64,000 bases of DNA from Nitrospirota bacterium (GTDB lineage: Bacteria; Nitrospirota; UBA9217), in NCBI GenBank assembly GCA_041476485.1, contig JBGOTO010000001.1, forward strand, positions 770-64,769, in the 5' to 3' direction. A program made the position numbers and the translations under genes. Below the pieces are notes generated by a model, which was given only the letters and a program-made list of their open reading frames with translations, was not told where the DNA came from and searched no databases. Shown piece by piece: positions 11,247 through 46,577 of the stretch; positions within the stretch are counted from its first letter, which is position 1; each line of letters opens with the position of its first letter.

Positions 11247-11393
11247 TACTCAGGTCAGCTACTTCGCTTTGCGCAAGGCGCGCCGGATAATTAAGGGAAT
11301 TTCGAAGTCGACCACAAGCCCCACCTTGCTTGATGTCCGTGCATCGGTCGCCGCGCGCTTCATTGCGCCTTTGCTCCGCAGCAGACCTGAGTA
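11247..11393. repeat. MITE-like ~147-bp intergenic repeat, copy 1 (TIR tactcaggtc / gacctgagta)
   Basis: About 95% identical to the copies at 23499..23645, 24915..25062 and 46431..46577. 10-bp perfect terminal inverted repeats; internal imperfect palindrome gcgcaaggcgcgcc ... ggcgcgcttcattgcgcc. Confidence 0.85.
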
Positions 11394-11431
11394 GTTACCT
11401 ATAATAAAATTAAAAAAAAATGGAGGGTCAC

Positions 11432-14314
11432 ATGAAAAAGTTTCTATCGGTTTCTCTTGTCATTATGGTTAGTGTTTTCACAGCCGCGGTCTGTACAGCC
11501 GAGCCGCCCACGGAGCCCATCCTCCGGATCGAGACCGGGATGCACACGGCGAAGATCGGGCGAATCGGCGTGGACGACGAAAACCGTTATCTCGTTACCG
11601 CGTCGGAAGACAAGACCGTGCGGCTCTGGGACCTTTCGACCGGCAGGCTCATCAGGATCTTCCGGCCGCCGGTAGGCGAGGGAAATGAAGGAAAGATTTA
11701 CTCAGTGGCCCTGTCCCCGGACGGGAACACCATTGCCTGCGGCGGATGGACGCAGTATGAAAACGGATCGTTCCAGGCGGTGGATTATTTCATCTACCTC
11801 TTTGACCGTCAGAGCGGCGGCGTCATCCGGAGAATCAGCGGACTGCCGAATGTCATTAACCAGCTCGCTTTTTCCCGGAACGGGGGATTTCTTGTGGCGA
11901 CCATGGGCCGGAGCAACGGCATCCGCGTCTACCGCTCTTCCGATTACCAGCAGGTGGCACTAGACGAGGATTACGGAGATAACAGCTACGGCGCCGACTT
12001 CGACGGGCAGGGGAGGCTGGTAACCGCGTCCTATGACGGCTATGTCCGCCTGTACAGCAGTTCCTTCAAGCTGATTGCAAAGATGAAAGCTCCCGGTGGA
12101 AACAAGCCCTTTGCGGTGCGTTTCAGTCCTGACGGCTCAAAGGCGGCGGTTGGATTCGTTGATTCCACAAAGGTGGATGTTCTCTCGGGGAATGATCTTT
12201 CCTCTCTTTTCTCTCCCGACACCTCGGGGGTGAACAACGGCAGCCTGTTCACCGTTTCCTGGTCTTCGGACGGGCGAAGTCTGTACGCAGGAGGACAGTA
12301 TACGAGCGACGGCACCCCCATCGTCAAATGGTCCGAAGGCGGCAGGGGCGCGCGCCGCAACTTGACGGCGGCAAACTCCACCATCATGCATATCCTGCCT
12401 CTGAAATCAGGCGGCATTGTTTTCAGCTCCTATGATCCCGCCTTCGGAATCATCAACGGCAGCGACCAACGCACACTCTTTAAAGCGCCCTCCACTCCCG
12501 ATTATCGGGACAACCAGCAGGGACTGCTGCTTTCTTACGACGGCTCATCCGTCCAATTCGCCTATGAACTCTGGGGCAAGTCGCCGGCTCGTATTTCCGT
12601 CTCCGAAGGGCTTCTTACCACACAGGTCGAAGCGACGAATTCCCAACTCGCCGCACCCGTCTTCTCTGCTCCGGGGATGGACATCACTAATTGGAAGTAC
12701 ACCTACGGTCCCAAACTCAACGGCGTCGAGCTGAAGCTGAAGCCGTATGAATGGTCGACCAGCATCGCCATCGCCCCGAATGGAGAATCGTTTCTCCACG
12801 GCTCGCTCTGGAACCTGCGCCTTTTTGACCGCGTCGGCGCCGAGAAATGGATCGTCCCCGCTCCGGGCGTGGTTTGGGCAGTGAACATCTCGGGGAACGG
12901 CAAAGTCGCGGTGGCGGCATGCGGCGACGGCACGGTCCGTTGGTACCGGATGACGGACGGGAAGGAACTTCTCGCCTTCTTCCCCCATATCGATAAAAAA
13001 CGCTGGGTCCTCTGGACCCCGTCGGGCTACTACATCGCTTCCCCCGGCGGCGAGGATCTGATCGGCTGGCACATCAACAACGGAAAAGACGCCGCTGCGG
13101 ACTTCTTTCCCGCTTCGCGGTTCCGGGACCGGTTCTACCGGCCCGACGTGACCGCGAAAATTCTCGGAACGTTCGATGAATCCGAAGCGGTCCGTCTGGC
13201 GAATGAAGAGTCGGGAAGGAGGCAGCAGGAGGCGTCGATCAAGCAGGCCCTGCCGCCGGTCGTGAGCATCGTCTCTCCTTCGGACGGCGCCGTTGTCTCA
13301 AATTCGCAGATCACCGTCAAATTCACGGTCCGGACGCCGTCCGGTGAACCGGTGACGTCTATCAAGGCTTTGGTGGACGGCCGTCCGGTCGCAGCGGAGC
13401 GGGGAGTCACCATAACCCCGAAAGACGCCGAACAAAGGGAAATCAGTATAACCGTCCCCGAGCAGAACACGGAGGTCTCGATTATCGCAGAGAACCGGTT
13501 TGCGGCAAGCGAGCCGGCAACGATACGGGTCAAATGGCGCGGGAAAAAGCAGCAGGACGAGTTCATCATCAAGCCGAAGCTCTATGTCCTGTCCGTCGGA
13601 GTGAGCAAGTACCAGAACCCCGATCTCACCCTGGGGCTTGCCGCCAAGGACGCCAAAGACTTCGCCGCCACCATGCAGAAGCAGCAGGGAGGGCTTTACC
13701 GCGAGGTGGTGACAAAGGTCCTGACCGATGAAAAGGCGACCAAGGACGATATTCTCGACGGTCTCGACTGGCTCCAGCGGCAGACCACGAGCAAGGACGT
13801 GGCCATGATCTTTCTGTCCGGCCACGGCGTGAACGACCAGAACGGCATCTACTATTATCTTCCGGTGAACGCGGACATCGAAAAACTCAAGCGGACGGGA
13901 GTGCCGTTCTCGGACGTCAAGAACACGGTGGCGTCACTGGCCGGGAAGACGGTTTTCTTCGTGGACACCTGCCATTCCGGGAGCGTCATGGGCCAGCGGC
14001 GCGGGCTGACCGACATCACCGCGATGGTGAATGAGCTTTCGAGCGCCGAGAACGGGGCGGTGGTCTTCGCCTCGTCCACCGGGGGCCAGTACTCCCTTGA
14101 GAAGTCGGAATGGGGAAACGGCGCTTTTACCAAGGCACTCATTGAGGGCATGAGCGGCAAAGCGGACTATACCGGCAAGGGCAAAATCAGCATCAACATG
14201 CTCGACCTGTATCTTTCCGAGCGGGTGAAGGAATTGACCAAAGGTAAACAGACGCCGACGACCACGAAGCCCAGCACCGTCCCGGACTTCCCCGTGGCGG
14301 TGAAGAGGCAGTAA
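11432..14314 (+). CDS. secreted WD40 beta-propeller / Ig-like / caspase (peptidase C14) multidomain protein
   Basis: Signal peptide MKKFLSVSLVIMVSVFTAAVCTA. WD40 repeats such as TASEDKTVRLWDLSTGRLIRIF and GDGTVRWYRMTDGKEL. Ig-like segment PPVVSIVSPSDGAVV...IRVKW. Caspase His-Cys dyad in FLSGHGV (His codon ~13823) and VDTCHSG (Cys codon 13971..13973). The ORF track start at 11420 lies 12 nt upstream; ATG 11432 has a GGAGGG RBS. Confidence 0.8.
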   Translation: MKKFLSVSLVIMVSVFTAAVCTAEPPTEPILRIETGMHTAKIGRIGVDDENRYLVTASEDKTVRLWDLSTGRLIRIFRPPVGEGNEGKIYSVALSPDGNTIACGGWTQYENGSFQAVDYFIYLFDRQSGGVIRRISGLPNVINQLAFSRNGGFLVATMGRSNGIRVYRSSDYQQVALDEDYGDNSYGADFDGQGRLVTASYDGYVRLYSSSFKLIAKMKAPGGNKPFAVRFSPDGSKAAVGFVDSTKVDVLSGNDLSSLFSPDTSGVNNGSLFTVSWSSDGRSLYAGGQYTSDGTPIVKWSEGGRGARRNLTAANSTIMHILPLKSGGIVFSSYDPAFGIINGSDQRTLFKAPSTPDYRDNQQGLLLSYDGSSVQFAYELWGKSPARISVSEGLLTTQVEATNSQLAAPVFSAPGMDITNWKYTYGPKLNGVELKLKPYEWSTSIAIAPNGESFLHGSLWNLRLFDRVGAEKWIVPAPGVVWAVNISGNGKVAVAACGDGTVRWYRMTDGKELLAFFPHIDKKRWVLWTPSGYYIASPGGEDLIGWHINNGKDAAADFFPASRFRDRFYRPDVTAKILGTFDESEAVRLANEESGRRQQEASIKQALPPVVSIVSPSDGAVVSNSQITVKFTVRTPSGEPVTSIKALVDGRPVAAERGVTITPKDAEQREISITVPEQNTEVSIIAENRFAASEPATIRVKWRGKKQQDEFIIKPKLYVLSVGVSKYQNPDLTLGLAAKDAKDFAATMQKQQGGLYREVVTKVLTDEKATKDDILDGLDWLQRQTTSKDVAMIFLSGHGVNDQNGIYYYLPVNADIEKLKRTGVPFSDVKNTVASLAGKTVFFVDTCHSGSVMGQRRGLTDITAMVNELSSAENGAVVFASSTGGQYSLEKSEWGNGAFTKALIEGMSGKADYTGKGKISINMLDLYLSERVKELTKGKQTPTTTKPSTVPDFPVAVKRQ

Positions 14315-14329
14315 GCGGTTCTTCACGGC

Positions 14330-14950
14330 ATGTGGCGCAAGGCTGAAGGCAGAAAAATGCGGCGGTTTATGAGGAACAGCAGGGGAAACATCTACCTCGA
14401 ATTTGCATTGCTTGCGGCGGTGTTCCTGGTAGCGGGCGCGCTGCTTGTCGGCATCCATCCCGCATTCGGACTGCTGGTGCCCATCGGCGTAGTGATCTTC
14501 TTTGTGCCGAACATCCTGTCGGGAGTGGCGTCATGGCAAGACAGACGGAGCTTCCGCCGGCAGCTCGCGTCGGTGGGAAACGTTGAGCGGAACCCTCCTA
14601 TTATGATTAGAAATGAGTTTCGCTGGTCGAAGGCCCAGGCCCTCTGGCTCGACCCCGCACGAGGCGAGCTGGGACTGCTGAACGCCGCAGACGGCCCGTC
14701 AACCAGGACGCTGGATGCGCTTCGCTCGGTGCGGGCCGTGTTTGCCGAAGCCGCCCAGGTGCGGACCTTTCACCGGCAGTATCGCGTTCCTGCGCGTTAC
14801 GCCCTGGTGTTCGACTTTGAGAACCAACCGTCCCTTGAGCTCGTTACGTACAAGAAGCGCGTAGCGGTCCAATGGATCGAAACACTGCGCCCCCATCTCG
14901 GCGGCCGGCTGAACACGGAAGGACTCGAGGCTAAAACCGGAATTCATTGA
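14330..14950 (+). CDS. hypothetical 2-TM membrane protein downstream of the caspase gene
   Basis: Starts 16 nt after the caspase stop; two N-terminal hydrophobic helices and a ~130-aa soluble domain with no motif I recognise. Confidence 0.5.
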   Translation: MWRKAEGRKMRRFMRNSRGNIYLEFALLAAVFLVAGALLVGIHPAFGLLVPIGVVIFFVPNILSGVASWQDRRSFRRQLASVGNVERNPPIMIRNEFRWSKAQALWLDPARGELGLLNAADGPSTRTLDALRSVRAVFAEAAQVRTFHRQYRVPARYALVFDFENQPSLELVTYKKRVAVQWIETLRPHLGGRLNTEGLEAKTGIH

Positions 14951-15262
14951 AGCGGTCCCGTCCGGTTTGCCGCCAAAATCTTGTATTGGAGGAGGTTCGC
15001 ATGCGTAAATGGTCAGTAGCAGCCTGCAGAACGCGAACGGCCATGATTACGACAAAATGGAAGTCGAGCATAAAAAGACAGGGGAAAAAGCAGTTTTTTA
15101 TTTTAACGTCGATATGCCGTATAGGTGGCTGAACAAGAAACTTCAATAGTATAAGGCCGTCACCGTGAGGAATGCAGGGCTTTTTCCTTTACATTTCGTT
15201 CCCTTTTATTGTATAAACCCAATGTATCTCCTGACCCTGTTTTGTCCTTTCCGAGGTTTTTC

Positions 15263-16680: not shown

Positions 16681-16734
16681 CGATTTCGGATTGTAGATTA
16701 CCGATTGCGGATTGAAATGGCGAGGGGTAGTGAA

Positions 16735-17328: not shown

Positions 17329-17342
17329 GATTGCCGGCGCTG

Positions 17343-17681: not shown

Positions 17682-17725
17682 GGTGGATTCCTTTCATAAC
17701 GCGTGCAAGATTGAAAGCCCACGCG

Positions 17726-19170: not shown

Positions 19171-20505
19171 ATGGCGACCACGACAGTAAAACCGCTTGAC
19201 ACGTTCAAGGGAGGTGTCCATCCTCCCGACAACAAGGCCCTCACTGCCCACAAGCCGACCGTTACGGCGGCAGTTCCCAGAAGAGTCGTCATACCCCTAA
19301 GCCAGCACATCGGCGCGCCTACCAAACCGCTTGTCGTTATCGGACAGGAAGTCAAAAAAGGAGAGAAGATCGGCGATCCCGCCGGCTTTGTTTCCGCGCC
19401 GGTCCACGCCTCAATTTCCGGCAAGGTGGCCGCCCTCGGGAACTTTCCCCATCCCCTCGGAATGGATATGCCTTCCGTGGTCATCGAGAGCGACGGCAAG
19501 GACGAGTGGATCGCGGGACTCCGGGAGAACCCCGACTACGGCCTGCTGGGCCCCGAGGAACTCAAGAAGATCGTTCAGGACGCGGGCGTCGTAGGCATGG
19601 GCGGGGCCACGTTCCCCACTCACGTAAAGCTTGCGCCCCCGAAGGAAAAGCCCGTTGACGTGGTGATCCTGAACGGCGCGGAGTGCGAACCCTTTCTGAC
19701 CTCCGACCACCGCCTCATGCTCGAACGGCCGAAGGAAATCATCGAAGGCCTCAAAATCCTCATGCGGATCTTGAACGTTCAGAAGGGATACATCGGCATC
19801 GAATCGAATAAGCCCGACGCGATCGAGGTCATGACCGAAGCCGCGTCCGGTTCTCCGGACATCAAAGTCTGGCCGGTCAAGGTGAAGTATCCCCAGGGCG
19901 CGGAGAAGATGCTGATCAAAGCCATTGTCGGCAGGACCGTTCCCGCCGGCGGCCTTCCCATGGACGTCGGCGCGCTCGTGCAGAACGTCGGCACGGCCGT
20001 GGCCGTTTACCACGCGGTCCGATACGGCAGGCCGCTCATCGAGCGCGAAGTAACGGTCACCGGAAGAGGGGTCAGGGAACCGAAGAACTTTCTCGCCCGG
20101 ATCGGCACGCCGTTCTCCCAACTTATCGAGGAAGCCGGCGGGCTGACCGACGACGCGGCCAAGGTGATCTCCGGCGGCCCCATGATGGGCATGAGCGAGT
20201 ATACGCTCGAGGTGCCGGTGATCAAGGGCACGTCGGGCATTCTCGTTCTCCCGAAGGCCGAAGTCAGCATGAAGTCCTATGGCCCGTGCATCCGCTGCGC
20301 CCGGTGCATCGACGCCTGCCCCATGAAACTCCAGCCGTCTTACATCGGCATCTATATCGAAAAGGGCCGTTACGAAGAGTCCAAAGAGTTCGGCTTGCTG
20401 GACTGCTTCGAGTGCGGGTGCTGCACCTTCGTCTGCCCGGCGAACCGGCCGATGGTCCAGTGGGTGAAAAAGGCGAAGAAGGAACTGGCGAAGAAGAAGG
20501 GTTAG
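19171..20505 (+). CDS. rnfC: Rnf electron transport complex subunit C
   Basis: NADH/FMN-binding fold GAECEPFLTSD and two C-terminal 4Fe-4S motifs (CIRCARCIDACP, CFECGCCTFVCP). Confidence 0.9.
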   Translation: MATTTVKPLDTFKGGVHPPDNKALTAHKPTVTAAVPRRVVIPLSQHIGAPTKPLVVIGQEVKKGEKIGDPAGFVSAPVHASISGKVAALGNFPHPLGMDMPSVVIESDGKDEWIAGLRENPDYGLLGPEELKKIVQDAGVVGMGGATFPTHVKLAPPKEKPVDVVILNGAECEPFLTSDHRLMLERPKEIIEGLKILMRILNVQKGYIGIESNKPDAIEVMTEAASGSPDIKVWPVKVKYPQGAEKMLIKAIVGRTVPAGGLPMDVGALVQNVGTAVAVYHAVRYGRPLIEREVTVTGRGVREPKNFLARIGTPFSQLIEEAGGLTDDAAKVISGGPMMGMSEYTLEVPVIKGTSGILVLPKAEVSMKSYGPCIRCARCIDACPMKLQPSYIGIYIEKGRYEESKEFGLLDCFECGCCTFVCPANRPMVQWVKKAKKELAKKKG

Positions 20506-20571
20506 TTCAGAGTTCAATGTTCGAAGTTCGGAACAGACAGTAAAATATTTTGGCCGAATGAGGTCTCTATA

Positions 20572-21603
20572 ATGGAAGCACCCGCAAAGGCACAGCCGAA
20601 AGAACAACCCAAACTGGTCGTTTCGATCGGGCCCCACCTGCACGACGTGGAGAGCACGGCGAAGATCATGTGGACCGTGAGCGGCGCGCTTCTTCCCGCA
20701 ACGCTCATGTCGGTCTATTTCTTCGGGATGCCGGCCCTGATGGTGATCCTCGTCTGTATCGTCACGTCTCTCCTGTCCGAGGCAGTTGTTCAGCGGATGC
20801 TGAAGAAGCCTGTTACCGTTTCCGACGGGAGCGCGTTCCTGACCGGTTTACTTCTTGCCATGAATCTTCCCGCGAATGCGCCGCTCTATATTCCGGCCGT
20901 CGGTTCATTCGTGGCCGTCGTGATAACGAAGCACCTCTTCGGCGGGCTCGGCTACAACATCTTCAACCCGGCGCTCATCGGCAGGGCCTTTGTCCTCATC
21001 AGCTTTCCCAAATTAATGACCACCTATGTCGCGCCCGCGGCCACTTTTATGGCCATAGACGCAAAGACCACGGCGACCCCGCTGGTCCTTCTGAAAGAAG
21101 AGGGGATGTCGAAGCTTCTCGAAATTTATCATACGAAATGGGCCCTGTACCAGGACCTGTTCCTCGGCAACCGCGCCGGGTCCCTCGGCGAAACATCAGT
21201 GGCCGCGCTTTTGCTCGGCGCCGCATTTCTCATGATGAAACGGTATATCACCTGGCACATCCCCATTACCTTCATCGCCACGGTTGGCGTCCTCACCTGG
21301 ATGTTCGGCGGCAAGGAAGGCCTTTTCTCGGGCGACGCAGTGTTGCATATGATGTCCGGCGGGCTGGTCCTCGGCGCGTTCTACATGGCCACGGACTATG
21401 TGACGGGCCCCTCGGTGCGCAGCGCCCAAGTGGTCTTCGGCATCTGCGCCGGAATTCTTACGACTCTCATACGGCTGAAAGGCGGCTATCCCGAAGGCGT
21501 GATGTTCGCCATCCTCCTGATGAATTGCTTCGCGCCGCTCCTTGACCGGAGCATGAAGAGCCGTATTTTCGGGAAGGCCGAGGCCAAGGTGGTGAAGAAA
21601 TGA
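20572..21603 (+). CDS. rnfD: Rnf complex subunit D
   Basis: NqrB/RnfD-like polytopic membrane protein with the conserved FMN-attachment region SGGLVLGAFYMATDYVTGP. Confidence 0.9.
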   Translation: MEAPAKAQPKEQPKLVVSIGPHLHDVESTAKIMWTVSGALLPATLMSVYFFGMPALMVILVCIVTSLLSEAVVQRMLKKPVTVSDGSAFLTGLLLAMNLPANAPLYIPAVGSFVAVVITKHLFGGLGYNIFNPALIGRAFVLISFPKLMTTYVAPAATFMAIDAKTTATPLVLLKEEGMSKLLEIYHTKWALYQDLFLGNRAGSLGETSVAALLLGAAFLMMKRYITWHIPITFIATVGVLTWMFGGKEGLFSGDAVLHMMSGGLVLGAFYMATDYVTGPSVRSAQVVFGICAGILTTLIRLKGGYPEGVMFAILLMNCFAPLLDRSMKSRIFGKAEAKVVKK

Positions 21604-22187
21604 AGGATATCCTGAAGATAACCCTGCCTCTCGTAGTGATTTTCGTTGTTGCGGGCATCATCATGAGCGTGACCTACCAGCATACCTATCCCGTCCGGTT
21701 TCAGGCGGAGAAGAAGGAAAAGGAAGAGGCGCTGAAAGAGATGGCGCCGGATGCGACCGACCCCATTAAACCGGCGGGGAACTGGACCGTCAATAACAAG
21801 CCCTACGAGTATTATGCGGCGACCTCCGGCAGAAAGCCGGTGGCCTACATCGCGGAAACCGCGGGCAAGGGTTATTCCAGTTTCATCAGGATGCTCGTTT
21901 CGCTCGGTCCCGATCTGAAAATCAGAGATGTCAAGATCCTCGGCCATGAAGAAACTCCCGGTCTCGGGGACCAGGTTGAGGACAAGAGTTTTCTGGACCA
22001 GTTCAAGGGAAAGACCCTTGCTCAGATCGTTCTGGTAAAGAAAGAAACGAAGGAAAACATCCAGGCCATATCCGGCGCGACCTATTCGAGCCGCGGCGTG
22101 ACGAATGGCGTTAAAGACGCGGCGCAGCAACTCATCGACACGTACGGGGCGGGCATCAAGAAGGCGGCGCGGGAGGTGAGGAAGTGA
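21600..22187 (+). CDS. rnfG: Rnf complex subunit G
   Basis: Single N-terminal TM, FMN-binding domain (SGATYSSRGV); overlaps the rnfD stop. Confidence 0.85.
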   Translation: MKDILKITLPLVVIFVVAGIIMSVTYQHTYPVRFQAEKKEKEEALKEMAPDATDPIKPAGNWTVNNKPYEYYAATSGRKPVAYIAETAGKGYSSFIRMLVSLGPDLKIRDVKILGHEETPGLGDQVEDKSFLDQFKGKTLAQIVLVKKETKENIQAISGATYSSRGVTNGVKDAAQQLIDTYGAGIKKAAREVRK

Positions 22188-22813
22188 GCAACCCTGTCAG
22201 TTACTGGACGCTTTTCAAAAACGGCATCTTCGGTGAGAACCCGGTTTTCAGGCTTGCGCTTTCTCTGTGCCCGGCCGTGGCCGTTACGAGCGGCGTGAAA
22301 AACGGGTTTCTGATGGGGGTCGCCGTCATGTTCGTCATGACCATGACGAACGTAACCGTTTCCCTGCTTCGGAACTTTATCAACCCGAAAGTCCGCATCC
22401 CCTCCTATGTGTTCATCACCGCGACCTGGGTCACGGTGATCGACCTGGTGATGTCGGCCTACCAAAGGGCGGTCTACAAGGAGATGGGCCTCTATATCAT
22501 GCTTATTGTCGCCTTTGCCATCATCCTCTCCCGGGCGGAGATGTTCGCGAGCAAGAATACACTCCTGCCGTCCTTCATCGACGGGGTAGGGATGGGGCTG
22601 GGTTTTCTGCTTGCCCTGGTCCTACTCGGCGTGTTCAGGGAGTTCCTCGGCAAAGGAACGCTCTGGGGCGCCCACATCCTGCCGGCAAAACCGCTGCTCA
22701 TCATGATTATGCCGACGGGCGGTTTCTTCGCCATGGGGCTCATCATGGGCGGGCTCAACTGGATCGACCGGAGGTTCTTCGGCGGCACGGGCGGCGGCGG
22801 GGGAGCGCATTAG
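22184..22813 (+). CDS. rnfE: Rnf complex subunit E
   Basis: RnfE/NqrD-family 6-TM protein; GTG start overlaps the rnfG stop. Confidence 0.85.
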   Translation: MSNPVSYWTLFKNGIFGENPVFRLALSLCPAVAVTSGVKNGFLMGVAVMFVMTMTNVTVSLLRNFINPKVRIPSYVFITATWVTVIDLVMSAYQRAVYKEMGLYIMLIVAFAIILSRAEMFASKNTLLPSFIDGVGMGLGFLLALVLLGVFREFLGKGTLWGAHILPAKPLLIMIMPTGGFFAMGLIMGGLNWIDRRFFGGTGGGGGAH

Positions 22814-22898
22814 AATTTCGGATTTCGGATTGTAGATTTCGGATTTTTTTTATTCCGCACTCCGCATTCCGCACTCCGCATTGCTGTAATCCGGAGGA

Positions 22899-23489
22899 AT
22901 GACCATGTGGGAGCATGTCGTAACGATATTCATAGCGTCGGCGCTCATCAATAACTTCGTTTTCTCGCGCTACCTCGGGCTGTGCATCTTTTTCGGCGTC
23001 ACGAAGAAGATGGAGACCGCGGTGGGCATGAGCTTTACCTTCACGGGGGTGATGCTGGTCGGCGCGGCGCTCAACTGGGCCATCTACAACTACGTGATGG
23101 TCCCCTATAGCCTGGGGTTCCTGAAGATCGTGATCTTCATCGGGACGATCGCCGCTTTTGTGCAGGCGGCCGACACGATCATGAAAAAAGTCGCCCCCGC
23201 GCTGTATTATAAGCTGGGCATTTACCTTGCCCTGATCGTGACGAACTGCATCATCCTCGCGGTGCCGCTCATCAACGCCGACGAGCACTACGGCCTGTTC
23301 GAGAGCATGGCCCTGGCCCTCGGTTCCGGCGCGGGGTTCAGCCTCGCCCTCATCATTATGGCGAGCATCCGGGAAAAGCTGGAACTCGCCGAGATCCCGA
23401 AATCGTTCCAGGGCCTGCCGATCTCGTTCATCGTGACCGGGCTCATCGCGCTGGCGTTTTTGGGGTTCTCGGGAATGATCACGTTGTAA
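22899..23489 (+). CDS. rnfA: Rnf complex subunit A
   Basis: RnfA/NqrE-family 6-TM protein. Confidence 0.85.
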   Translation: MTMWEHVVTIFIASALINNFVFSRYLGLCIFFGVTKKMETAVGMSFTFTGVMLVGAALNWAIYNYVMVPYSLGFLKIVIFIGTIAAFVQAADTIMKKVAPALYYKLGIYLALIVTNCIILAVPLINADEHYGLFESMALALGSGAGFSLALIIMASIREKLELAEIPKSFQGLPISFIVTGLIALAFLGFSGMITL

Positions 23490-23498
23490 AAATGTAAC

Positions 23499-23645
23499 TA
23501 CTCAGGTCAGTTGCTTCGCTTTGCGCAAGGCGCGCCGGATAATTAAGGGAATTTCGAAGTCGATCACAAGCCCCGCCTTGCTTGATGTCCGTGCATCGGT
23601 CGCCGCGCGCTTCATTGCGCCCGCGCTCCGCAGCAGACCTGAGTA
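23499..23645. repeat. MITE-like ~147-bp repeat, copy 2 (between rnfA and rnfB)
   Basis: Begins 10 nt after the rnfA stop; same TIRs and core as copy 1. Confidence 0.85.
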
Positions 23646-23729
23646 GTTATGTAAAAATGATAAATTCAAAGTGAAAAATTTACAATAAAGTGGTAGTATA
23701 CTTCTGCTTTAATTTTTTTGTGAAGGTGC

Positions 23730-24902
23730 ATGGCCATGGTTGAACACATAACGGACATTCTGACGCAGGTCTTCTCCTCCGCGCTCTCTCTTATTACGAA
23801 CAACCTGGCGCCGCTCGTCGACACAGGCGTCTCACCGGAGGCGACAGGGACCGTTCCCGCGTCCACGGTGTATATCACGCTGATCGTGCTCGCGGCGCTC
23901 GGCATTGTGTTCGGCGTGGCCCTTGCCCTCATCGCCGCCCGCTTCGTAGTGAAGGCGGATCCCAAGGTTGACAAGGTGCGCGAGTCCCTGCCGGGCGCGA
24001 ACTGCGGCGCCTGCGGTTTCGCGGGCTGCATGGGCTATGCCGAGGCCGTGGTCGGGAACCCCGACGTGGCGGTGAGCCTCTGCGCCCCCGGCAAGGCCGC
24101 CGTGGCAGCGATGATCGCCGACATTACGGGCAAGAAGGCGGAAAAGATGGACCCCAAGATCGCCCGGGTCTTCTGCCAGGGCGGGACGTCCCTCTCCCAG
24201 CGAAAGTTCATCTATACGGGCGTGAAAGACTGCACCGCGGCGGTGCTCGCCGCGGGTGGAGACAAGTCCTGCGACTACGGCTGCCTGGGCTACGGGACGT
24301 GCATGCGCGCCTGTCCTTTCGACGCCATCACGATGAGCACGGACAACCTGCCGATCATCCATCCGGACAAATGCACGGCCTGCGGCAAGTGCGTGGCCGC
24401 CTGCCCCAAGCAGGTGATCGAACTCGCCCGGGCGTCCAAGGCCGTGGTGATCAGCTGCCACAGCAGGGACAAGGGCGCGGACACGAAGAAGAAGTGCCAG
24501 GTGGGCTGCATCGCCTGCGGCATCTGCGTCAGGACCTGCCCGGTGAACGCCATCACGCTCGAGAACAATATCGCCCGGATCGACCATGCCAAGTGCATCA
24601 CCTGCGGCCTGTGCGTGACCAAGTGCCCCATGAACACGATCAAGGATTATATCCCGGTCCGCGCGAAGGCCTTCATCGATTCCACAAAATGCGTCGGCAT
24701 CGACGCGTGCGAAAAGATCTGCCCGGTGAACGCCATCTCGGGAGACGTCGGGTCGCTGCATGTCGTCGATCAGGAGAAGTGCATCGGCTGCGGCATGTGC
24801 GAGCCCCGCTGCCCCAAGAAGGCCATTACCATGGTCGAGGCAGCGTCAACGGCAGCCGTTGCGAAGAAGCGCGAAAAGGAGCAGGAAACGGTCAAGGTGT
24901 AG
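23730..24902 (+). CDS. rnfB: Rnf complex subunit B with extended polyferredoxin C-terminus
   Basis: N-terminal TM anchor, the CGACGFAGC cluster, and then more than five CxxCxxCxxxCP 4Fe-4S motifs. Confidence 0.85.
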   Translation: MAMVEHITDILTQVFSSALSLITNNLAPLVDTGVSPEATGTVPASTVYITLIVLAALGIVFGVALALIAARFVVKADPKVDKVRESLPGANCGACGFAGCMGYAEAVVGNPDVAVSLCAPGKAAVAAMIADITGKKAEKMDPKIARVFCQGGTSLSQRKFIYTGVKDCTAAVLAAGGDKSCDYGCLGYGTCMRACPFDAITMSTDNLPIIHPDKCTACGKCVAACPKQVIELARASKAVVISCHSRDKGADTKKKCQVGCIACGICVRTCPVNAITLENNIARIDHAKCITCGLCVTKCPMNTIKDYIPVRAKAFIDSTKCVGIDACEKICPVNAISGDVGSLHVVDQEKCIGCGMCEPRCPKKAITMVEAASTAAVAKKREKEQETVKV

Positions 24903-24914: not shown

Positions 24915-25062
24915 TACTCAGGTCAGCTACCTCGCTTTGCGCAAGGCGCGCCGGATCATTAAGGGAATTTCTAAGTCGACCCACAAGCCCCGCCTTGCTT
25001 GATGTCGGTGCATCGGTCGCCGCGCGCTTTATTGCGCCTGCGCTCCGCAGCAGACCTGAGTA
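24915..25062. repeat. MITE-like ~147-bp repeat, copy 3 (after rnfB)
   Basis: Begins 12 nt after the rnfB stop; same orientation as the other copies. Confidence 0.85.
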
Positions 25063-25345
25063 GTTACAAGAATTTTTAAAAAGCACGGAGGGGATGTAAA
25101 AAAGCATTCCCTTTTTTATTTCTCCGGCCTGTGCCCCGTCCCCCCGCGGGTCATTCCCCTTGACAATGCCGTATCCCTATGTAAGAATAAAATGGTTCTC
25201 CGCAACGGCGAGGAACATCTTCCGCGCATGCACGGGCGCCGCGAATTTTTTTGGGGAAGCTCCCGCTCTTTTTGCTTGACAAAAATATGCGCTTAGGCTA
25301 AAAACAGAACCATTCTCGATTTGTTCACGCTTCCGGAGGTATCAT

Positions 25346-29613: not shown

Positions 29614-30915
29614 TTGGACGATCAGCTAACGAAATACACACAAAAGCTCCTCCGCGACCGGACCGCGGTTGCGGAAAGCCTCCGCTTCTACCGGCTCGAC
29701 GACGTTTTGACGTCAAACAAACGGGACGAATGGCTTCCGCTCTTCACCGAGGTTTTCAACGGGCTGGACATCACCGCGATACTCTTTGCAAAACCGACGC
29801 TGCCTTTCGCTGACCTGCTTGTGGAACGGACCGATACGAACATTGATCGGCTTGTTCCGAAGGACAGCGAGACCAAAGGGTTCCTGCACGATATCCCCTT
29901 CATACGGGAGTGTGAATGGGCCGGGAGGCCGAAGCACGAGCTCGCAGGCATGATCGTCCGGTGTCTGAAAGAGCGGAAGGCGGCGATTATCCAGGGACTC
30001 GGCATGGTCGCGACGGGCGGCGTGACGGTGGAACAGGCGTACATCGGCTTTTCCACCCTGTTCCACACGACCTTCGTCAAATATCTTCTCGACCTGCTGG
30101 TAGAGGGGTTCAGGCTGCCGGGAGAAAAAGATGCTTTTGCGGCGTTTCGTAAGGATTGGTTGAAGACGCCGGACTTAGGCAGCCTTACCTTCACTCCGGG
30201 ACCGCTTGAAGGCAATGCGGAGTGCGGAATGCGCCCTGCACTCGCGCGAGCACTCGTAAACGCTGGGTGCAGGCGGAATGCGGAATGCGTGAATCGTAGT
30301 CAGGGAACAGACGCAATCTATCGTGAAGTCTGCAGGGTCGGACGCTATACCGTCGAGAAGGGATACGTAGACTCCTTTTTCGGGAACATCAGTTATTTCG
30401 ACGGAAAGACCATCTACATCAGCCAGACTACTTCATCGCTCGACGAGCTTGAAGGCCATATCGACCCTGTACCGCTCGACGGCTCATCCACTGCCGGGCT
30501 TTCGGCCTCATCGGAATTGCCTGCTCACCGGGGGATATACCTGTCTTCGGACTATCATGCCGTCCTTCACGGTCACCCCAAGTTCAGCGTGGTCATGTCC
30601 ATGTACTGCGTGGAGGAAGGCTGCACGATTCCCGACTGCAACCGGTTTTGCGATCGCAAACGTTCCGTGTGCGGCGTGCCGGTCGTGGCCGGAGAGACGG
30701 GCGCCGGCGGGCTGGCAACATCCGTTCCTCTTGCCATCAACAAGACCGGCGTCTGCATCGCCTACGGGCACGGTATTTTTTCTGCAGGGAAGAAAGATTT
30801 TCGGGATGCGTTCATGAACATGGCGGAGGCGGAAGACAAGTGCAGAGACGGGTATTTTGAACTGCTGGAAGGCAGGAAGGTAGAAGGTCACGAAGTTAAG
30901 AAGTTAGGAGAGTAA
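29614..30915 (+). CDS. two-domain protein whose C-terminal half is class II aldolase/adducin-like; the heptamer repeat is embedded in-frame mid-ORF
   Basis: TTG start. The C-terminal half has GNISYFDG, HAVLHGHP and AYGHGIFSAG (class II aldolase Zn/His motifs). Residues encoded by 30214..30292 (NAECGMRPALARALVNAGCRRNAECVNRS) come from the GCGGAAT repeat element that is intergenic at five other loci. Confidence 0.6.
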   Translation: MDDQLTKYTQKLLRDRTAVAESLRFYRLDDVLTSNKRDEWLPLFTEVFNGLDITAILFAKPTLPFADLLVERTDTNIDRLVPKDSETKGFLHDIPFIRECEWAGRPKHELAGMIVRCLKERKAAIIQGLGMVATGGVTVEQAYIGFSTLFHTTFVKYLLDLLVEGFRLPGEKDAFAAFRKDWLKTPDLGSLTFTPGPLEGNAECGMRPALARALVNAGCRRNAECVNRSQGTDAIYREVCRVGRYTVEKGYVDSFFGNISYFDGKTIYISQTTSSLDELEGHIDPVPLDGSSTAGLSASSELPAHRGIYLSSDYHAVLHGHPKFSVVMSMYCVEEGCTIPDCNRFCDRKRSVCGVPVVAGETGAGGLATSVPLAINKTGVCIAYGHGIFSAGKKDFRDAFMNMAEAEDKCRDGYFELLEGRKVEGHEVKKLGE

Positions 30916-30963
30916 GAAGGTAGGAAACACGTTCTTACCCTTTTCCGGTCTTCGCTCCGCCTT

Positions 30964-39090: not shown

Positions 39091-39166
39091 GCGGGCGTAG
39101 CTCAGTTGGTAGAGTACAAGCTTCCCAAGCTTGGGGTCGCGGGTTCGAACCCCGTCGCCCGCTCCA
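39091..39166 (+). tRNA. tRNA-Gly (anticodon CCC), CCA-encoded
   Basis: Manual cloverleaf: acceptor GCGGGCG/CGCCCGC, D-arm GCTC-AGTTGGTA-GAGT, anticodon stem CAAGC/GCTTG with loop TTCCCAA, T-arm GCGGG-TTCGAAC-CCCGT, 3' CCA. Confidence 0.85.
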
Positions 39167-39226: not shown

Positions 39227-39242
39227 GTCTGGGAGGTGCAAT

Positions 39243-39905: not shown

Positions 39906-39927
39906 TAGTCAGGAGTCAGTAGGAAGC

Positions 39928-40449: not shown

Positions 40450-40478
40450 GGTCAGGGGGCAGGGGTCAAGGGGCATGG
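40449..40478. repeat. G-rich left inverted repeat flanking the four-helix-bundle gene
   Basis: GGGTCAGGGGGCAGGGGTCAAGGGGCATGG abuts the start codon. Its reverse-complement partner lies at 40838..40863 (GTGGGTCAGGGGGCATGGGTCAAGGG when reverse-complemented). Confidence 0.7.
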
Positions 40479-40837: not shown

Positions 40838-40863
40838 CCCTTGACCCATGCCCCCTGACCCAC
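40838..40863. repeat. G-rich right inverted repeat (C-rich on + strand) flanking the four-helix-bundle gene
   Basis: CCCTTGACCCATGCCCCCTGACCCAC begins 1 nt after the stop codon. Confidence 0.7.
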
Positions 40864-40873
40864 TAAACATAAT

Positions 40874-41968
40874 TTGCAGAAAAAGGAGAAAACAGTGAAC
40901 AAACTCAAGGAAATTCTCGATACTATTCAGCCCGTCGACCAGTCTCGCTCGAACACGGTCCAGGCGCAGCTTGACAACCTAACGAAGCCGCAGGGGAGCC
41001 TCGGCCGCCTGGAGGAGCTTGCGAAAAAATATTGCCTGATCACGGGCAAGGACAAGCCGACGATCAGGAACAAGATCATTTTTACCTTTGCCGGCGACCA
41101 CGGCGTCACGGAAGAGGGCGTGAGCGCATTTCCCAGGGAGGTGACGCCGCAGATGGTGTTCAATTTCCTGCGCGGCGGCGCGGGAGTGAACGTGCTCGCG
41201 AAGCACACGGGCGCCAGGGTGATCGTGGTGGACATGGGCGTTGATTACGAATTCGAGCCAACGGACGGGCTCGAGATCAGAAAAATAGCCCGCGGCACGA
41301 AGAACATGACCAAGGGTCCGGCCATGACCCGCGAAGAAGCGGAGCGCGCGGTTCTCGCCGGGATCGAACTGGTGGAAAAATATAAGAACGGGCTCGACCT
41401 CCTCGGGACCGGGGACATGGGTATCGGGAACACGACGCCGTCCTCGGCGATCGTATCAGTCATCACGGGAACGGACCCGGAAAAAGTGACTGGACGAGGC
41501 ACCGGCATCGACGAGCAGTCATTAAAGAACAAGGTGGCGATCATTAAAAAAGCGATTGCGGTGAACAAGCCTGATCCCAAGGATGCCCTCGACGTGCTTG
41601 CCAAGGTGGGCGGGTATGAGATCGCCGGGATCGCCGGACTCGTGCTCGGGGCGGCGCTCTACAGGATTCCTGTGGTGATCGATGGGTTCATCTCGACCGC
41701 GGGCGCGCTCATCGCTGCGGAATTGAATCCCCTGTGCAAGGGCTACATGATCGCAGCGCACCAGTCGGTCGAGATCGGCCACCGGAAGATGCTCGAACAT
41801 ATGGAGCAGATACCGCTCCTGGACCTCAATCTCCGGCTGGGAGAGGGCACGGGCGCGGCGCTCGGCATGTCGCTCGTCGAGGCGGGCGTGAAGATCCTCG
41901 GCGAGATGGCGACGTTTGCAGCCGCGGGAGTCGCGGAAGGCAACGAGGCTGAGAAAGTGAGAAATTAA
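40874..41968 (+). CDS. cobT: nicotinate-nucleotide--dimethylbenzimidazole phosphoribosyltransferase
   Basis: CobT signature GDMGIGNTT...GLVLGAAL...[10 protein letters not shown]. Confidence 0.9.
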
Positions 41969-42049
41969 GAAGGTGGAAAGGTAGGAGGGCAAGAAGGTAG
42001 GAAAATGGGAAGGTAAGAAGGTAGGCAAAGAGAGGAAAAGACGGCAGGC

Positions 42050-42820: not shown

Positions 42821-42824
42821 TCCT

Positions 42825-43421
42825 ATGCCTACGAGAGTTTATCTCATGCGCCACGGCGAGGTGGCGGATGACGGAAAGAAACGCTACAACGGCCACATCG
42901 ACCTCGACATCACGCAAAACGGGATAGATCAGATGCGACGTCTTGCCGGCATGCTTGCGGGGAAGAACATCACGGCTGTCTATTCGAGCGATCTCATCCG
43001 GTCGGTCAAAGGCGCGGGGATCATTGCGGAACGGATCGGACTTCCCTTTTCGCCCCGGCGCGAGCTGCGGGAGCGGAGCGTGGGGGCGTGGGAAGGGCTC
43101 ACGGCCGAGGAGATCAAGGCCCGCTTTCCGGAGGAATATACGACGTGGCGTACGGATCTGCTCAGCTACCGTCCGCCCGGCGGCGAATGCCTGCTCGACG
43201 TGAGGGACCGGATCCTGCCGGTATTCAAGGGCCTGGTGACCGCGCATTCCGGCGGTGAGCTCGCGATGCTTTTGCACGGCGGCGTGAACAGGCTCATTCT
43301 TGGCGATGCCCTCGGCATGGACCCACTGAACGTTTTTAGGATAGACCAGACGTACGGCGCTCTCAACATTATCGATTACTACGACGACGGAATGGCCGTG
43401 GTCAGGCTTCTGAACGGGTAG
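42825..43421 (+). CDS. cobC: alpha-ribazole phosphatase (histidine phosphatase family)
   Basis: LMRHGE catalytic motif at the N-terminus; cob operon context. Confidence 0.8.
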   Translation: MPTRVYLMRHGEVADDGKKRYNGHIDLDITQNGIDQMRRLAGMLAGKNITAVYSSDLIRSVKGAGIIAERIGLPFSPRRELRERSVGAWEGLTAEEIKARFPEEYTTWRTDLLSYRPPGGECLLDVRDRILPVFKGLVTAHSGGELAMLLHGGVNRLILGDALGMDPLNVFRIDQTYGALNIIDYYDDGMAVVRLLNG

Positions 43422-43479
43422 GACCCGACTTTCCCTGAAACTTCTTGAGTATTCTCATCATATCTGATAGTCTATTGTT

Positions 43480-43683
43480 ATGAAGTCAGTAATGGACATA
43501 GCAAAAGAGGAAGAGCGGAAAGAGTTCCTCAAGCGTTCCCCGCTTGAGAGGATGGAAGTCATGCACGATTTTCTGTTCCAGGTCATCGCCCTAAAAGCGC
43601 GAGGGGAAAGAGTCCCTGAATATGAGATCTATACGAGATACCTTAGAGACAATCCGAGACATTACGAACGCTCTTCCCGTTAA
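43480..43683 (+). CDS. small ORF overlapping (different frame) the downstream NTase gene; possible frameshifted N-terminus
   Basis: 67 aa; overlaps 43622..43683 of the next ORF in another frame. Confidence 0.3.
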   Translation: MKSVMDIAKEEERKEFLKRSPLERMEVMHDFLFQVIALKARGERVPEYEIYTRYLRDNPRHYERSSR

Positions 43684-44230
43684 AGTCACTATCGTTCTTA
43701 CCGGCGGATATGCCGTAATCGCGCACGGCGTCGAACGAACGACCCTTGACCTTGATTTTTGCGTCTACTCCGACCTTATCGAAACCGCCGACACTGCCGC
43801 ATTTTTCGATGTTCTGAAAAAAAATCTCCCCAAAAGATATGAAGCAGAACTGAGGCAAGGCAGCAAAATCCCCGATGATCCTTTCAAGCATGACCTCATC
43901 CGTATTATTGACAATCAAAAAGAGTTTTTGAGAATCGACTTGCTGATAGCCCGCTATAAATGGGAGCTGGAGGGCATGGAGCTGGCCGTGCATCTTAAAG
44001 ACATTCCCTTGCCCGTCCTGAGCAAGCCGTACCTCGTTGCCATGAAGCTGCAAGCCACGGCGTACAAGGACTACCAGGATGTCGTGACCCTGTTTGACCT
44101 CATGACCGAAGAAGAAAAAGCAAAGACGCGGGAGCTTGCAAAGCGGACCCACAGGGACAAAAAGCTTGACCGGATTCTTTCCCCGCCGCCCGAAGAAGAA
44201 GTGCGGGAAATGCCGGAGGAGTATTTATAG
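43622..44230 (+). CDS. Pol-beta-superfamily nucleotidyltransferase (AbiEii/MNT-like)
   Basis: TGGYAVIAHGVERTTLDLDF is a G-G-x13-D-x-D NTase motif, followed by a helical C-terminal region. Confidence 0.55.
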   Translation: MRSIRDTLETIRDITNALPVKVTIVLTGGYAVIAHGVERTTLDLDFCVYSDLIETADTAAFFDVLKKNLPKRYEAELRQGSKIPDDPFKHDLIRIIDNQKEFLRIDLLIARYKWELEGMELAVHLKDIPLPVLSKPYLVAMKLQATAYKDYQDVVTLFDLMTEEEKAKTRELAKRTHRDKKLDRILSPPPEEEVREMPEEYL

Positions 44231-44335
44231 ACGCTCTGCGAGCAGCACAGACTCCACATCATTCGTTTCTTCTTAGTCGTGTTCCACCCCAAAGTATCAT
44301 GGAATATCCTTTCTGACGGCGTCCGGCTTTTTGTC

Positions 44336-44460
44336 ATCAATGGCCTGCACGCACCCTGTGCGCGTCAGTCGCTCAAGGCCGGCGTGCCCGAGTGAGACGA
44401 GCTTTTCGGGAAACTCCTGGCCGGCCTTTTCTTGACGCGCGACGAAAGTTATGATTGAAT
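44336..44460 (+). promoter_or_regulatory. conserved ~125-nt upstream element, copy A (upstream of rtcB)
   Basis: Aligns with 61917..62040: atcaa.tgcct..gcacgc....tgtgcgcgtc...tcgctcaagg.c.g.gtgc...gtgaga...ttt.ggg.aa.tcctggc...cttgac...tatg.t.aat. Confidence 0.55.
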
Positions 44461-44511
44461 TCTAGTAGTAAGAGCAATTTGGCGCGTTCAGACGTATCCG
44501 GAGGGAGAACC

Positions 44512-45996
44512 ATGCCGGCGCCTGCGGGAAAAATAGAGTCAGGGAAGCCCGAATTTATCAAAATTTCGGATGTTATTTGGGATTTGCCCAGGAGCTTCAA
44601 ACACGGCATGAGGGTCCCCGCGCGGATTGTCGCAACGCGGAAGCTGATCGACGCCATGGACCTTCAGGTCTACGACCAGATCTCGAACGTCGCAACCCTG
44701 CCGGGCATACAGAAATTCGCCTTCTGCATGCCCGACGGTCACAGCGGCTACGGCTTTCCGATCGGCGGCGTCGCGGCCTTCGACGTGAACGAAGGCGGCG
44801 TGATATCGCCGGGCGGCATCGGGTTCGACATCAACTGCGGTATGCGGCTGGCGCTCACGAACCTGACCCGTGACGAGGTAATGCCGCAGGTGAAGACGCT
44901 GGTGGACAAGCTCTTCCGCCGGGTCCCGGCGGGCGTCGGCAGCAGGGGCTTCGTTCGATTATCAAAAGAAGAATTCCGGGACGAAGTCGCCGTCGAAGGC
45001 TCCGAGTGGGCGGTCCGGAAAGGCTACGGATGGAAGGAAGATCTGGAGAGGACCGAGCTCTCCGGCAGGGCGGATTGGGCGGACAACACGACGATATCTC
45101 CACGCTCTGTCGAACGGGGATTCAACCAGATCGGCACCCTCGGCTCGGGGAACCATTATCTAGAAATCCAATGGGTCAAACCCGAAAACATCATGGACGA
45201 AAAGCTGGCTGCACGATGGGGCATCTTTCCCGACCAGGTGGTAATCATGTTTCACTGCGGCTCCCGCGGTTTCGGCCATCAGATTGCTACGGACTACCTT
45301 ACCCTGTTCCTGTCCGTCATGGAGCGGAAGTACGGGATCAAGATCCTCGACCAAGAGCTTGCCAGCGCGCCGTTCTTGTCCCGCGAAGGCCAGGACTACT
45401 ACAAGGCCATGGGCTGCGCAGTGAACATGAGCTTTGCCAACCGGCAGGTGATCCTGCACCGGGTCCGGGAAGTCTTCTCCGAGCAGTTCAATAAAAGTCC
45501 CGAAGAACTCGGCATGCACATGGTGTTCGACATAGCCCATAATCGCGGGACCTTCGAAAAGCACGAGGTGGACGGTAAGATCAAAGAGCTGATTGTCCAC
45601 CGCAAAGGCGCCACCGGGTGCTACCATCCCGGCAGGGAAGAAATTCCGGAGCTCTATCGCGCGGACGGCTCGCCGGTCATCATCGGCGGTTCCATGGAAA
45701 CCGGGAGTTACCTGCTCGTCGGCGGACCGAACGCGAAAGACACCTTCTGCTCGACGGCGCACGGAAGCGGCCGGACCATGAGCAGGGCCAAGGCGAAGAG
45801 GATGATCAGGGGCTCGGAGCTCCTGGAAAAGCTCGAGGAGCGGGGCATCTACGTCAAATCCGCGAGCTATTCCGGCGCGGCGGAAGAGGCCGGGTTCGCC
45901 TATAAGGACATCGACGACGTGGTCGAAGCGGCGTCGCAGGCCGGGATCTCGCTGCCGGTGGTGAAGCTCGTTCCGCTCGGGAACGTGAAAGGGTGA
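44512..45996 (+). CDS. rtcB: RNA 3'-phosphate/5'-OH ligase RtcB
   Basis: CMPDGHSGYGFPIGGV, GFDINCGMRL, HNRG, HRKGAT are RtcB metal-binding/His-GMP motifs. RBS GGAGGGA precedes ATG 44512; the track ORF start at 44455 is a TTG inside the upstream element. Confidence 0.9.
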   Translation: MPAPAGKIESGKPEFIKISDVIWDLPRSFKHGMRVPARIVATRKLIDAMDLQVYDQISNVATLPGIQKFAFCMPDGHSGYGFPIGGVAAFDVNEGGVISPGGIGFDINCGMRLALTNLTRDEVMPQVKTLVDKLFRRVPAGVGSRGFVRLSKEEFRDEVAVEGSEWAVRKGYGWKEDLERTELSGRADWADNTTISPRSVERGFNQIGTLGSGNHYLEIQWVKPENIMDEKLAARWGIFPDQVVIMFHCGSRGFGHQIATDYLTLFLSVMERKYGIKILDQELASAPFLSREGQDYYKAMGCAVNMSFANRQVILHRVREVFSEQFNKSPEELGMHMVFDIAHNRGTFEKHEVDGKIKELIVHRKGATGCYHPGREEIPELYRADGSPVIIGGSMETGSYLLVGGPNAKDTFCSTAHGSGRTMSRAKAKRMIRGSELLEKLEERGIYVKSASYSGAAEEAGFAYKDIDDVVEAASQAGISLPVVKLVPLGNVKG

Positions 45997-45997
45997 C

Positions 45998-46429
45998 ATG
46001 CCGTACCGGTTCCTCGAAGATGTCGCTATCGCCGATGTCGCCTTCGAAGCCGAAGGGCGGGTCCTTCCGGAATTGTTCAAGGAGGCGGGCCTTGCGGTGA
46101 CGAACACGATGGTGCAGGACCTTTCGCAGATCGAGCACAAGATCGCAAAGAGGATCAAGGGCGCGGCGGAGAATATCGAGATGCTGCTGTTTCATTTTTT
46201 GCAGGACCTGATTTTCTACAAGGACGCGGACCTGCTTCTCTTTAGCGATTTTCATCTCACGATCGTCCAGCGGGAAGGCGAGTGGCGCCTCCATGGAACG
46301 GCCTATGGCGAAGAGATATCCCCTGACCGGCATGAACTTCTTGTCGACGTAAAGGCGGTGTCTCTCCATAATTATAAAGTCCGGAAAACGGCAAAGGGAT
46401 GGCAGGCGGAAGTCATCCTTGATGTGTGA
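45998..46429 (+). CDS. archease (RtcB activator)
   Basis: 143 aa, 1-nt gap after rtcB; matches the archease family pattern. Confidence 0.75.
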   Translation: MPYRFLEDVAIADVAFEAEGRVLPELFKEAGLAVTNTMVQDLSQIEHKIAKRIKGAAENIEMLLFHFLQDLIFYKDADLLLFSDFHLTIVQREGEWRLHGTAYGEEISPDRHELLVDVKAVSLHNYKVRKTAKGWQAEVILDV

Positions 46430-46430
46430 T

Positions 46431-46577
46431 TACTCAGGTCAGCTACTTCGCTTTGCGCAAGGCGCGCCGGAGAATTAAGGGAATTTCGAAGTTGACCACA
46501 AGCCCCACCTTGCTTGATGTCCGTGTATCGCTCGCCGCGCGCTTCATTGCGCCTGCGCTCCGCAGCAGACCTGAGTA
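46431..46577. repeat. MITE-like ~147-bp repeat, copy 4 (after archease)
   Basis: Starts 2 nt after the archease stop; same TIRs as the other copies. Confidence 0.85.

Follow-up and report, generated by a model that had tools for sequence, protein, structure and literature searches.

The 64,000-bp stretch analysed here (the window; contig JBGOTO010000001.1 of the Nitrospirota bacterium assembly GCA_041476485.1) carries four copies of a short repeat, all of which are located at gene ends (Table 1). One copy precedes a gene for a caspase-like protein with WD40 repeats, two are associated with the rnfCDGEAB operon, which encodes an energy-conserving complex, and the fourth overlaps the end of the archease gene. 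RnfC, RnfB, archease, and the WD40 and Peptidase_C14 protein were confirmed by Pfam, as was RnfA by the Rnf-Nqr family, in agreement with the gene names rnfA, rnfB, archease, and caspase of an initial annotation. This annotation had also reported the four copies at 11247-11393, 23499-23645, 24915-25062, and 46431-46577 in one orientation, and all of them were found again on the plus strand. We assign the repeats, with a probability of about 0.9, to a non-autonomous miniature inverted-repeat transposable element (MITE) that has the termini of the ISBst12 group, the single-open-reading-frame branch of the IS66 family, and is mobilised in trans.

Table 1 Copies of the MITE, their flanking duplications and the neighbouring genes in the window
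Feature	Position	Strand	Remarks
MITE copy 1, 157 bp	11242-11398	+	Left end GTGATTACTCAGGTC, right end GACCTGAGTAGTTAC
Copy 1 left target-site duplication ATATAATA	11234-11241	. (not assigned)	Right CTATAATA at 11399-11406, 7/8
MITE copy 2, 157 bp	23494-23650	+	rnfA-rnfB spacer; left end canonical GTAACTACTCAGGTC; empty site in L194 and L200
Copy 2 left target-site duplication GTAAAAAT	23486-23493	. (not assigned)	Right GTAAAAAT at 23651-23658, 8/8
MITE copy 3, 5'-truncated	24915-25067	+	No left duplication; inverted repeat short of its first 5 nt
Copy 3 right duplication AAGAATTT	25068-25075
MITE copy 4, 157 bp	46426-46582	+	G-TGA at its start makes up the end of the final archease codon and the stop
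Copy 4 left target-site duplication CTTGATGT	46418-46425	. (not assigned)	Final archease codons; right CTTGATGT at 46583-46590, 8/8
WD40 + Peptidase_C14 (caspase-like) gene	11420-14314	+	Downstream of copy 1; Pfam
rnfCDGEAB operon	19171-24902	+	Pfam; hosts copy 2, then copy 3 downstream
rnfC	19171-20505	+
rnfD	20572-21603	+
rnfG	21600-22187	+
rnfE	22184-22813	+
rnfA	22899-23489	+
rnfB	23730-24902	+
Terminator-like hairpin with T-run	25087-25114	+	Downstream of copy 3; kept in the relative without MITEs
Archease gene	45998-46429	+	Downstream of rtcB (44455-45996); Pfam

When the copies and their flanks were aligned with relatives from other genomes, conservation was found to reach 5 nt beyond the limits of the initial annotation on both sides. 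The element, described there as about 147 bp long with 10-bp inverted repeats, has a true size of 157 bp and is bounded by a 15-bp terminal inverted repeat, GT(A/G)A(C/T)TACTCAGGTC ... GACCTGAGTAGTTAC; the inverted repeats as such held on realignment and are longer than claimed. In copies 1 and 4, the left end has the variant form GTGATTACTCAGGTC instead of GTAACTACTCAGGTC, and the ends of copies 1, 2, and 4 show 0-2 mismatches each to the 15-bp repeat GTAACTACTCAGGTC / GACCTGAGTAGTTAC. Inward of the inverted repeat, imperfectly symmetric arms extend for about 30 nt on each side. Homology among the copies ends exactly at the inverted repeats, and any two copies are 91-96% identical across the whole element, which bears out the high identity noted before and replaces the single value of about 95% by a range. 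The 10-mer TACTCAGGTC and its complement occur without mismatch exactly eight times in the window, one pair per copy; at up to one mismatch, about two sites of this type are expected by chance, and none of 100 shuffles reached nine. The same anatomy (15-bp repeat, 157 bp) is kept in the four window copies and in two metagenome copies of the same subfamily.

Every copy folds as a long imperfect hairpin, as had been proposed from its palindromic core, and for copy 1 the RNA fold has a minimum free energy of -60.3 kcal/mol (z score of -3.4 versus dinucleotide shuffles). The element is small and non-coding: open frames cross the 157 bp, none of which is preserved, a 1-nt insertion in copy 3 shifts the frame, and no Pfam-bearing gene is found within the element. 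A coding function was dismissed after a check of the coding potential. Rfam 15 at the gathering score gave no family at the repeats, the matches in the window being only a tRNA (39091-39163) and a thiamine pyrophosphate (TPP) riboswitch (46695-46799).

Direct repeats of 8 bp, which had gone unnoticed before, are situated immediately outside the ends of copies 1, 2, and 4 and are perfect for the latter two; copy 3 has none. A sample of 52 non-redundant small elements of 76-297 bp, bounded by the terminus and taken from the window, from metagenome-assembled genomes (MAGs), and from metagenome contigs, displayed identical 8-bp flanks in 17 cases and flanks matching at 7/8 in another 13, which makes 30/52 at 7/8 or better, compared with about 2% when left and right flanks were paired at random. 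Perfect flanking repeats in this sample have a length of 8 bp, with none at 9 and one at 7. Fixed flanking repeats of this kind are characteristic of a transposase that makes staggered cuts of 8 bp.

The duplicated octamers have a mean GC content of 25%, below the 44% of their 50-bp flanks and the 53% of the whole loci, in line with a preference for AT-rich targets. In a genome of about 58% GC, such as that of the window, stop codons, promoters, and spacers are where most AT-rich octamers occur, which explains the residence of the copies at gene ends. The target octamer of copy 2 includes the rnfA stop codon TAA. Copy 1 lies between a promoter-like site (11171-11199) and the WD40-caspase gene, 21 nt ahead of the ATG, and has as its target a TATAAT-like box at this same distance from the ATG. 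Copy 4 was inserted within the last sense codon of the archease gene, where its first bases rebuild a valine codon and give the stop codon (46427-46429), leaving the protein end ...EVILDV* unchanged. The distance of 2-12 nt that the initial annotation gave between the stop codons and the copies following them is inexact, with the rnfA stop codon lying in the duplication of copy 2 and the archease stop codon inside copy 4. Similarly, of the two copies said to lie inside the rnf operon, copy 2 is the sole intercistronic one, and copy 3 is placed between the rnfB stop codon and the terminator-like hairpin listed in Table 1. Because this hairpin is kept in a MITE-free relative, it is probably the native rnf terminator, and copy 3, which it follows, is probably situated in the 3' untranslated region of the rnf transcript.

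The features described so far also bear on the alternative that the repeats are REP/BIME- or ERIC-like palindromes of the host, spread by a RAYT-type enzyme or by recombination and not by a DDE transposase. This alternative, which had been put forward before, would be in line with an intergenic, GC-rich, imperfect palindrome and with a window that encodes no transposase. It is contradicted by the fixed 8-bp target duplications, by a length of 157 bp, which is far above the size of a REP unit, by ends that begin with GTAA as in IS66 elements (PMC11946415), and by 15-bp termini identical to those of elements encoding IS66-family transposases (see below). In view of these points, the REP/ERIC-like reading was rejected as very improbable.

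Further evidence for insertion comes from relatives of the host, in which the sites of copies 2 and 3 are empty. Proteins with 76-82% identity to RnfB are labelled as uncultured Nitrospirota, and the host is assigned to this group on that basis. In contig L194, whose RnfB is 93% identical to that of the window, the rnfA-rnfB spacer comprises 77 bp and reads ...ATCACGCTGTAGAAATGATAAATTC..., the empty site of copy 2 being ...ACGCTGTAGAAATGATAAATTC; except for two substitutions, taking the element and one octamer out of the window sequence yields this spacer. Contig L200 (RnfB 82% identical) is free of insertions both between rnfA and rnfB and downstream of rnfB. Copy 3 is missing from L194 as well, which reads GCCGCGAATTAAAACGAATTTTTCAAAAGC at that site, and the window at copy 3 reads GCCGCGAAT, followed by the element (TACTCAGG...GTTAC) and AAGAATTTTTAAAAAGC. 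This arrangement would fit an insertion that duplicated A(C/A)GAATTT and a subsequent 17-nt deletion that took the left duplication together with the first five bases of the terminus; such a deletion would be the reason why copy 3 has no flanking repeat. Copy 3 is probably no longer able to move and is fixed in place. Both copies are present in L073, an independent metagenome contig of the same population, with an identical copy 2, and are therefore tolerated; the effects of the copies on the host are probably small. Within copy 2 of L073 (3598-3711), the JGI annotation contains a 37-aa gene on the minus strand, probably a false prediction to which the repeat gave rise.

A different insert of about 190 bp was observed in the same rnfA-rnfB spacer of contig L195 (1725-1991) and also of L196-L199, with an RnfB 87% identical to that of the window. 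The insert of L195 holds a CCCTCTCCC/GGGAGAGGG hairpin (1817-1873). Unrelated elements seem to have entered this spacer repeatedly.

The family is dispersed far beyond the window. Copies of the same subfamily, 89-94% identical, are present on the unrelated metagenome contigs L155 and L095, the latter with a perfect duplication AACGACCG, and a copy with about 78% identity was found in a Nitrospirota MAG (L013). Relatives of 187 bp, which have about 45 nt of either end in common with the window element and differ in the core, occur on more than 20 contigs of the Nitrospirota MAG VAR_43_metabat_96 among the matches listed, and related subfamilies are present in several other Nitrospirota MAGs. 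The arms of about 45 nt are conserved across MITE subfamilies whose cores differ, and two compensatory changes separate the subfamilies. Deletion derivatives of 76 and 121 bp, each with 8-bp flanks matching at 7/8, were also found. The genome contigs were scanned with a degenerate 18-mer of the terminus; about half of the matches listed are attributable to chance, and the source genome is not among them. No match to the terminus was obtained in viral contigs. Dispersal on other contigs, which had been proposed as a check on the repeats, is thereby established. It also decides against a local segmental duplication confined to this region, a reading that could account for four copies within 35 kb in one orientation. 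This reading was discarded as almost certainly wrong, given the copies of the same subfamily and of related subfamilies on other contigs, the homology that stops exactly at the inverted repeats, and the own duplication of each copy (the left one of copy 3 having been lost).

Several other terminus-bearing structures were recorded in these scans. A 280-bp element in a Verrucomicrobia MAG (L038, 3691-3970) combines the 15-bp terminus and a duplication matching at 7/8 with an unrelated core, and the terminus is therefore common to different phyla. In L161 (870-4014), a UvrD-like helicase gene (1066-3249) is enclosed by two inverted termini whose subterminal sequences match over about 50 nt, a structure that may represent two separate small elements or a composite. 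The solo termini of L037, L039, and L040 were tried as ends of transposase-bearing elements and turned out to be truncated remnants or the 121-bp deletion derivative.

The parent family of the MITE was deduced from its ends. IS66 elements have inverted repeats that start with GTAA and are flanked by 8-bp direct repeats (PMC11946415), and this family was suspected because the window ends begin with GTAA and the duplication is 8 bp long. In addition, a metagenome scan for the terminus yielded 120 loci, which besides pairs of termini at MITE-like distances include many pairs about 1.5 kb apart and some at 2.6-3.5 kb. The 1.5-kb elements L107, L179, and L193 each contain one long open reading frame (ORF) of 482-511 aa; in L107 and L179, all other ORFs of at least 80 aa overlap the long one, characterising them as single-ORF elements. 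A Pfam scan of the ORFs of L107, L163, L179, and L193 identified DDE_Tnp_IS66 with E values of 1e-40 to 3e-49, together with zf-IS66 and DUF6444, and an NCBIfam scan of those of L107, L163, and L179 gave transpos_IS66 (NF033517) with 286-323 bits at a cutoff of 180. A gene for an IS66-type transposase is present in 30/120 of the terminus loci, and perfect 8-bp duplications flank two full-length elements, L084 (GTCCTGCG) and L117 (CAAATGTA). The window itself encodes no transposase of the IS66 family (best E value in a tblastn search with such transposases, 0.59), as had been noticed earlier, and the window element is therefore non-autonomous. An origin in a MITE-like element mobilised in trans, already presumed in the initial annotation, is now supported by target duplications of 8 bp, by empty sites in a close relative, and by IS66-family elements whose termini are identical.

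A derivation from another insertion sequence family that generates 8-9-bp duplications, such as IS1, was considered on account of the length of the duplication and of GGTGAT/GGTAAT-like ends, which superficially resemble IS1 termini. The idea of an IS1-derived MITE with a 9-bp duplication was dropped when further copies fixed the ends at GTAAC/GTTAC with 8 bp and the full-length relatives proved to belong to the IS66 family. Among the three full-length elements scanned with NCBIfam, the sole match other than transpos_IS66 was to IS6 with 20.5 bits against a cutoff of 125. The ends moreover begin with GTAA and are nearly identical to those of ISDge4, a member of the ISBst12 group (PMC12898284). 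We regard such a derivation as highly improbable.

Some of the larger elements with the same terminus carry passenger genes. L163 (177-2755), L096 (241-2968), and L143 (8-2576) are IS66/ISBst12-type elements of about 2.6 kb. Beside its transposase gene, L163 has an ORF of 292 aa that is assigned to DruA by Pfam (Druantia protein, PF14236, E value 5e-40), and the versions of L096 and L143 are 70-74% identical to it. L062, a contig of a Nitrospirota MAG, bears a weak DruA-like match at its end (6760-7356); a terminus-like site near this ORF, at position 5780, was rejected as a degenerate or chance match. The elements of L127 (3-3545) and L176 (102-3617) have a size of 3.5 kb and combine an IS66 transposase with a WD40/beta-propeller ORF of 586 aa (L127, 139-1899).

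According to the mechanism that we propose, an IS66-family DDE transposase, which would be encoded elsewhere in the genome or would formerly have been present there, binds both ends of the MITE. The element would then be inserted at an 8-bp staggered cut in AT-rich DNA, the repair of which would duplicate the 8 bp. The anatomy of the copies, the 8-bp duplications, the empty sites, and the termini in common with transposase-encoding elements are direct observations; an ISBst12-group enzyme is the putative mobiliser of the window copies, which may still be mobile. Several observations weigh against this explanation. The full-length elements share only the terminal 15-25 nt with the MITEs; none of those sampled shares more than about 20-30 nt per end, and the best one matches at 12/17 subterminal positions. 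Relatives of two of the transposases are labelled Chloroflexota, Acidithiobacillus, Planctomycetota, or 'bacterium', and no autonomous partner labelled Nitrospirota was found among them or in any Nitrospirota assembly, which is weak evidence because multi-copy insertion sequences are often absent from MAGs. Several full-length metagenomic elements are devoid of duplications, which may reflect chimeric assembly. The window copies diverge by 4-9%, which speaks against a very recent burst of transposition. Finally, the arms of about 45 nt, being kept across MITE subfamilies and not in the full-length elements, are not explained by transposase recognition alone.

This last point could be accommodated if the host had taken over the element as an RNA signal, with a hairpin that directs processing, stabilises the transcript, or attenuates transcription and thereby adjusts, for instance, the ratio of rnfB to rnfCDGEA. 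Function and not transposition would then keep the arms, which is compatible with a MITE origin. The stability of the hairpin, the conservation of the arms across subfamilies with different cores, and the two compensatory changes are in line with such a role, as are the orientation of all four copies, which is that of the neighbouring genes, and the location of copies 2 and 3 within the rnf transcription unit. An influence on mRNA processing is known for Correia and ERIC elements. On the other hand, four copies would share one orientation by chance in 1/8 of cases, a need for both ends to fit one transposase would predict the compensatory changes just as well, and a close relative does without copies 2 and 3. 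A function as terminator or attenuator, as suggested in the initial annotation, finds no support in the sequence: no copy was flagged as an intrinsic terminator in our scans, and no T-run is present in the sequences following the four copies (CTATAATA, GTAAAAAT, AAGAATTT, and CTTGATGT). A takeover as RNA signal is thus considered unlikely. A wider version of this idea, that the MITE lineage persists in Nitrospirota without a resident transposase and that its hairpin came to serve the host as a signal for RNA processing or stability in operons, e.g., for decoupling rnfB from rnfCDGEA, is likewise doubtful; if true, the hairpin would represent a regulatory repeat resembling Correia and ERIC elements with an independent origin in the IS66 family.

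Two further features of the window were noted. Just downstream of copy 4 (46660-46832), a promoter-like site (46660-46688), the TPP riboswitch mentioned above (65.4 bits), and a terminator-like hairpin (46810-46832) precede thiG (47111-47911) and form an ordinary thiamine leader. Purine-rich tracts of the GAAGGTAGGAAGG type at 30860-30927 and 41945-42028 belong to one repeat family and straddle the ends of the long ORFs 29614-30915 and 40874-41968, running into the downstream spacer.

MITEs are routine constituents of bacterial genomes, and the assignment of the repeats to the ISBst12 group changes no concept. It documents a MITE family tied to a poorly studied, single-ORF branch of IS66; the literature searched yielded neither an account of IS66-derived MITEs nor one of MITEs in Nitrospirota. 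The family also explains a recurrent repeat of 157-187 bp that breaks assemblies of Nitrospirota MAGs and yields spurious calls of small ORFs, and its presence or absence in the rnfA-rnfB spacer marks differences at the strain level. Populations with and without a hairpin of -60 kcal/mol in the rnf operon constitute a natural experiment in which the subunit balance of the energy-conserving complex is testable.

Comparison with known systems places the window element among the small mobile repeats of bacteria. With REP/BIME sequences it has in common that intergenic, GC-rich palindromes are located within operons. REPs have a size of 20-40 nt, cause no target duplications, and are tied to RAYT transposases, whereas the window element comprises 157 bp and has 8-bp duplications and IS66-type ends. 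Correia and ERIC elements duplicate TA, and RUP is derived from IS630. The Correia elements of Neisseria, ERIC/IRU of enterobacteria, RUP of Streptococcus, and MITEPsy1 (PMC3189936) resemble the window element in being small and non-coding, with terminal inverted repeats and hairpins; they too occur in many dispersed intergenic copies, are sometimes co-transcribed with operons, and are mobilised in trans. The difference lies in the parent family, as indicated here by the 8-bp duplication and the IS66-type ends. Classical IS66/IS679 elements share the GTAA start, the 8-bp direct repeat, and the DDE domain family with the elements described here (PMC11946415). Their ends read GTAAGCG..., in contrast to GTAACTACTCAGG in the window, and they carry tnpA-tnpB-tnpC, whereas the related autonomous elements found in this study possess one ORF without tnpA or tnpB and, unlike classical IS66, in some cases a DruA-like or WD40 passenger gene. 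From the ISBst12 group, the window element is distinguished by its 157 bp that encode nothing, by the lack of a relationship to any sampled full-length element beyond about 20 nt, and by a host lineage, apparently Nitrospirota, in which no autonomous copy was found. ISDge4 of Deinococcus geothermalis, an ISBst12-group element that was observed to transpose, has the ends GTGACTACTCAGCA and GTAACTGCTCAGCA and an 8-bp repeat (PMC12898284), the same length of target duplication as in the window; its ends GTGACTACTCAG / GTAACTGCTCAG are nearly identical to GTGATTACTCAG / GTAACTACTCAG of the window, including the GTGA variant at one end, and the full-length elements with the window termini conform to the group in their size of about 1.5 kb and their one ORF of about 480-510 aa with DDE_Tnp_IS66.

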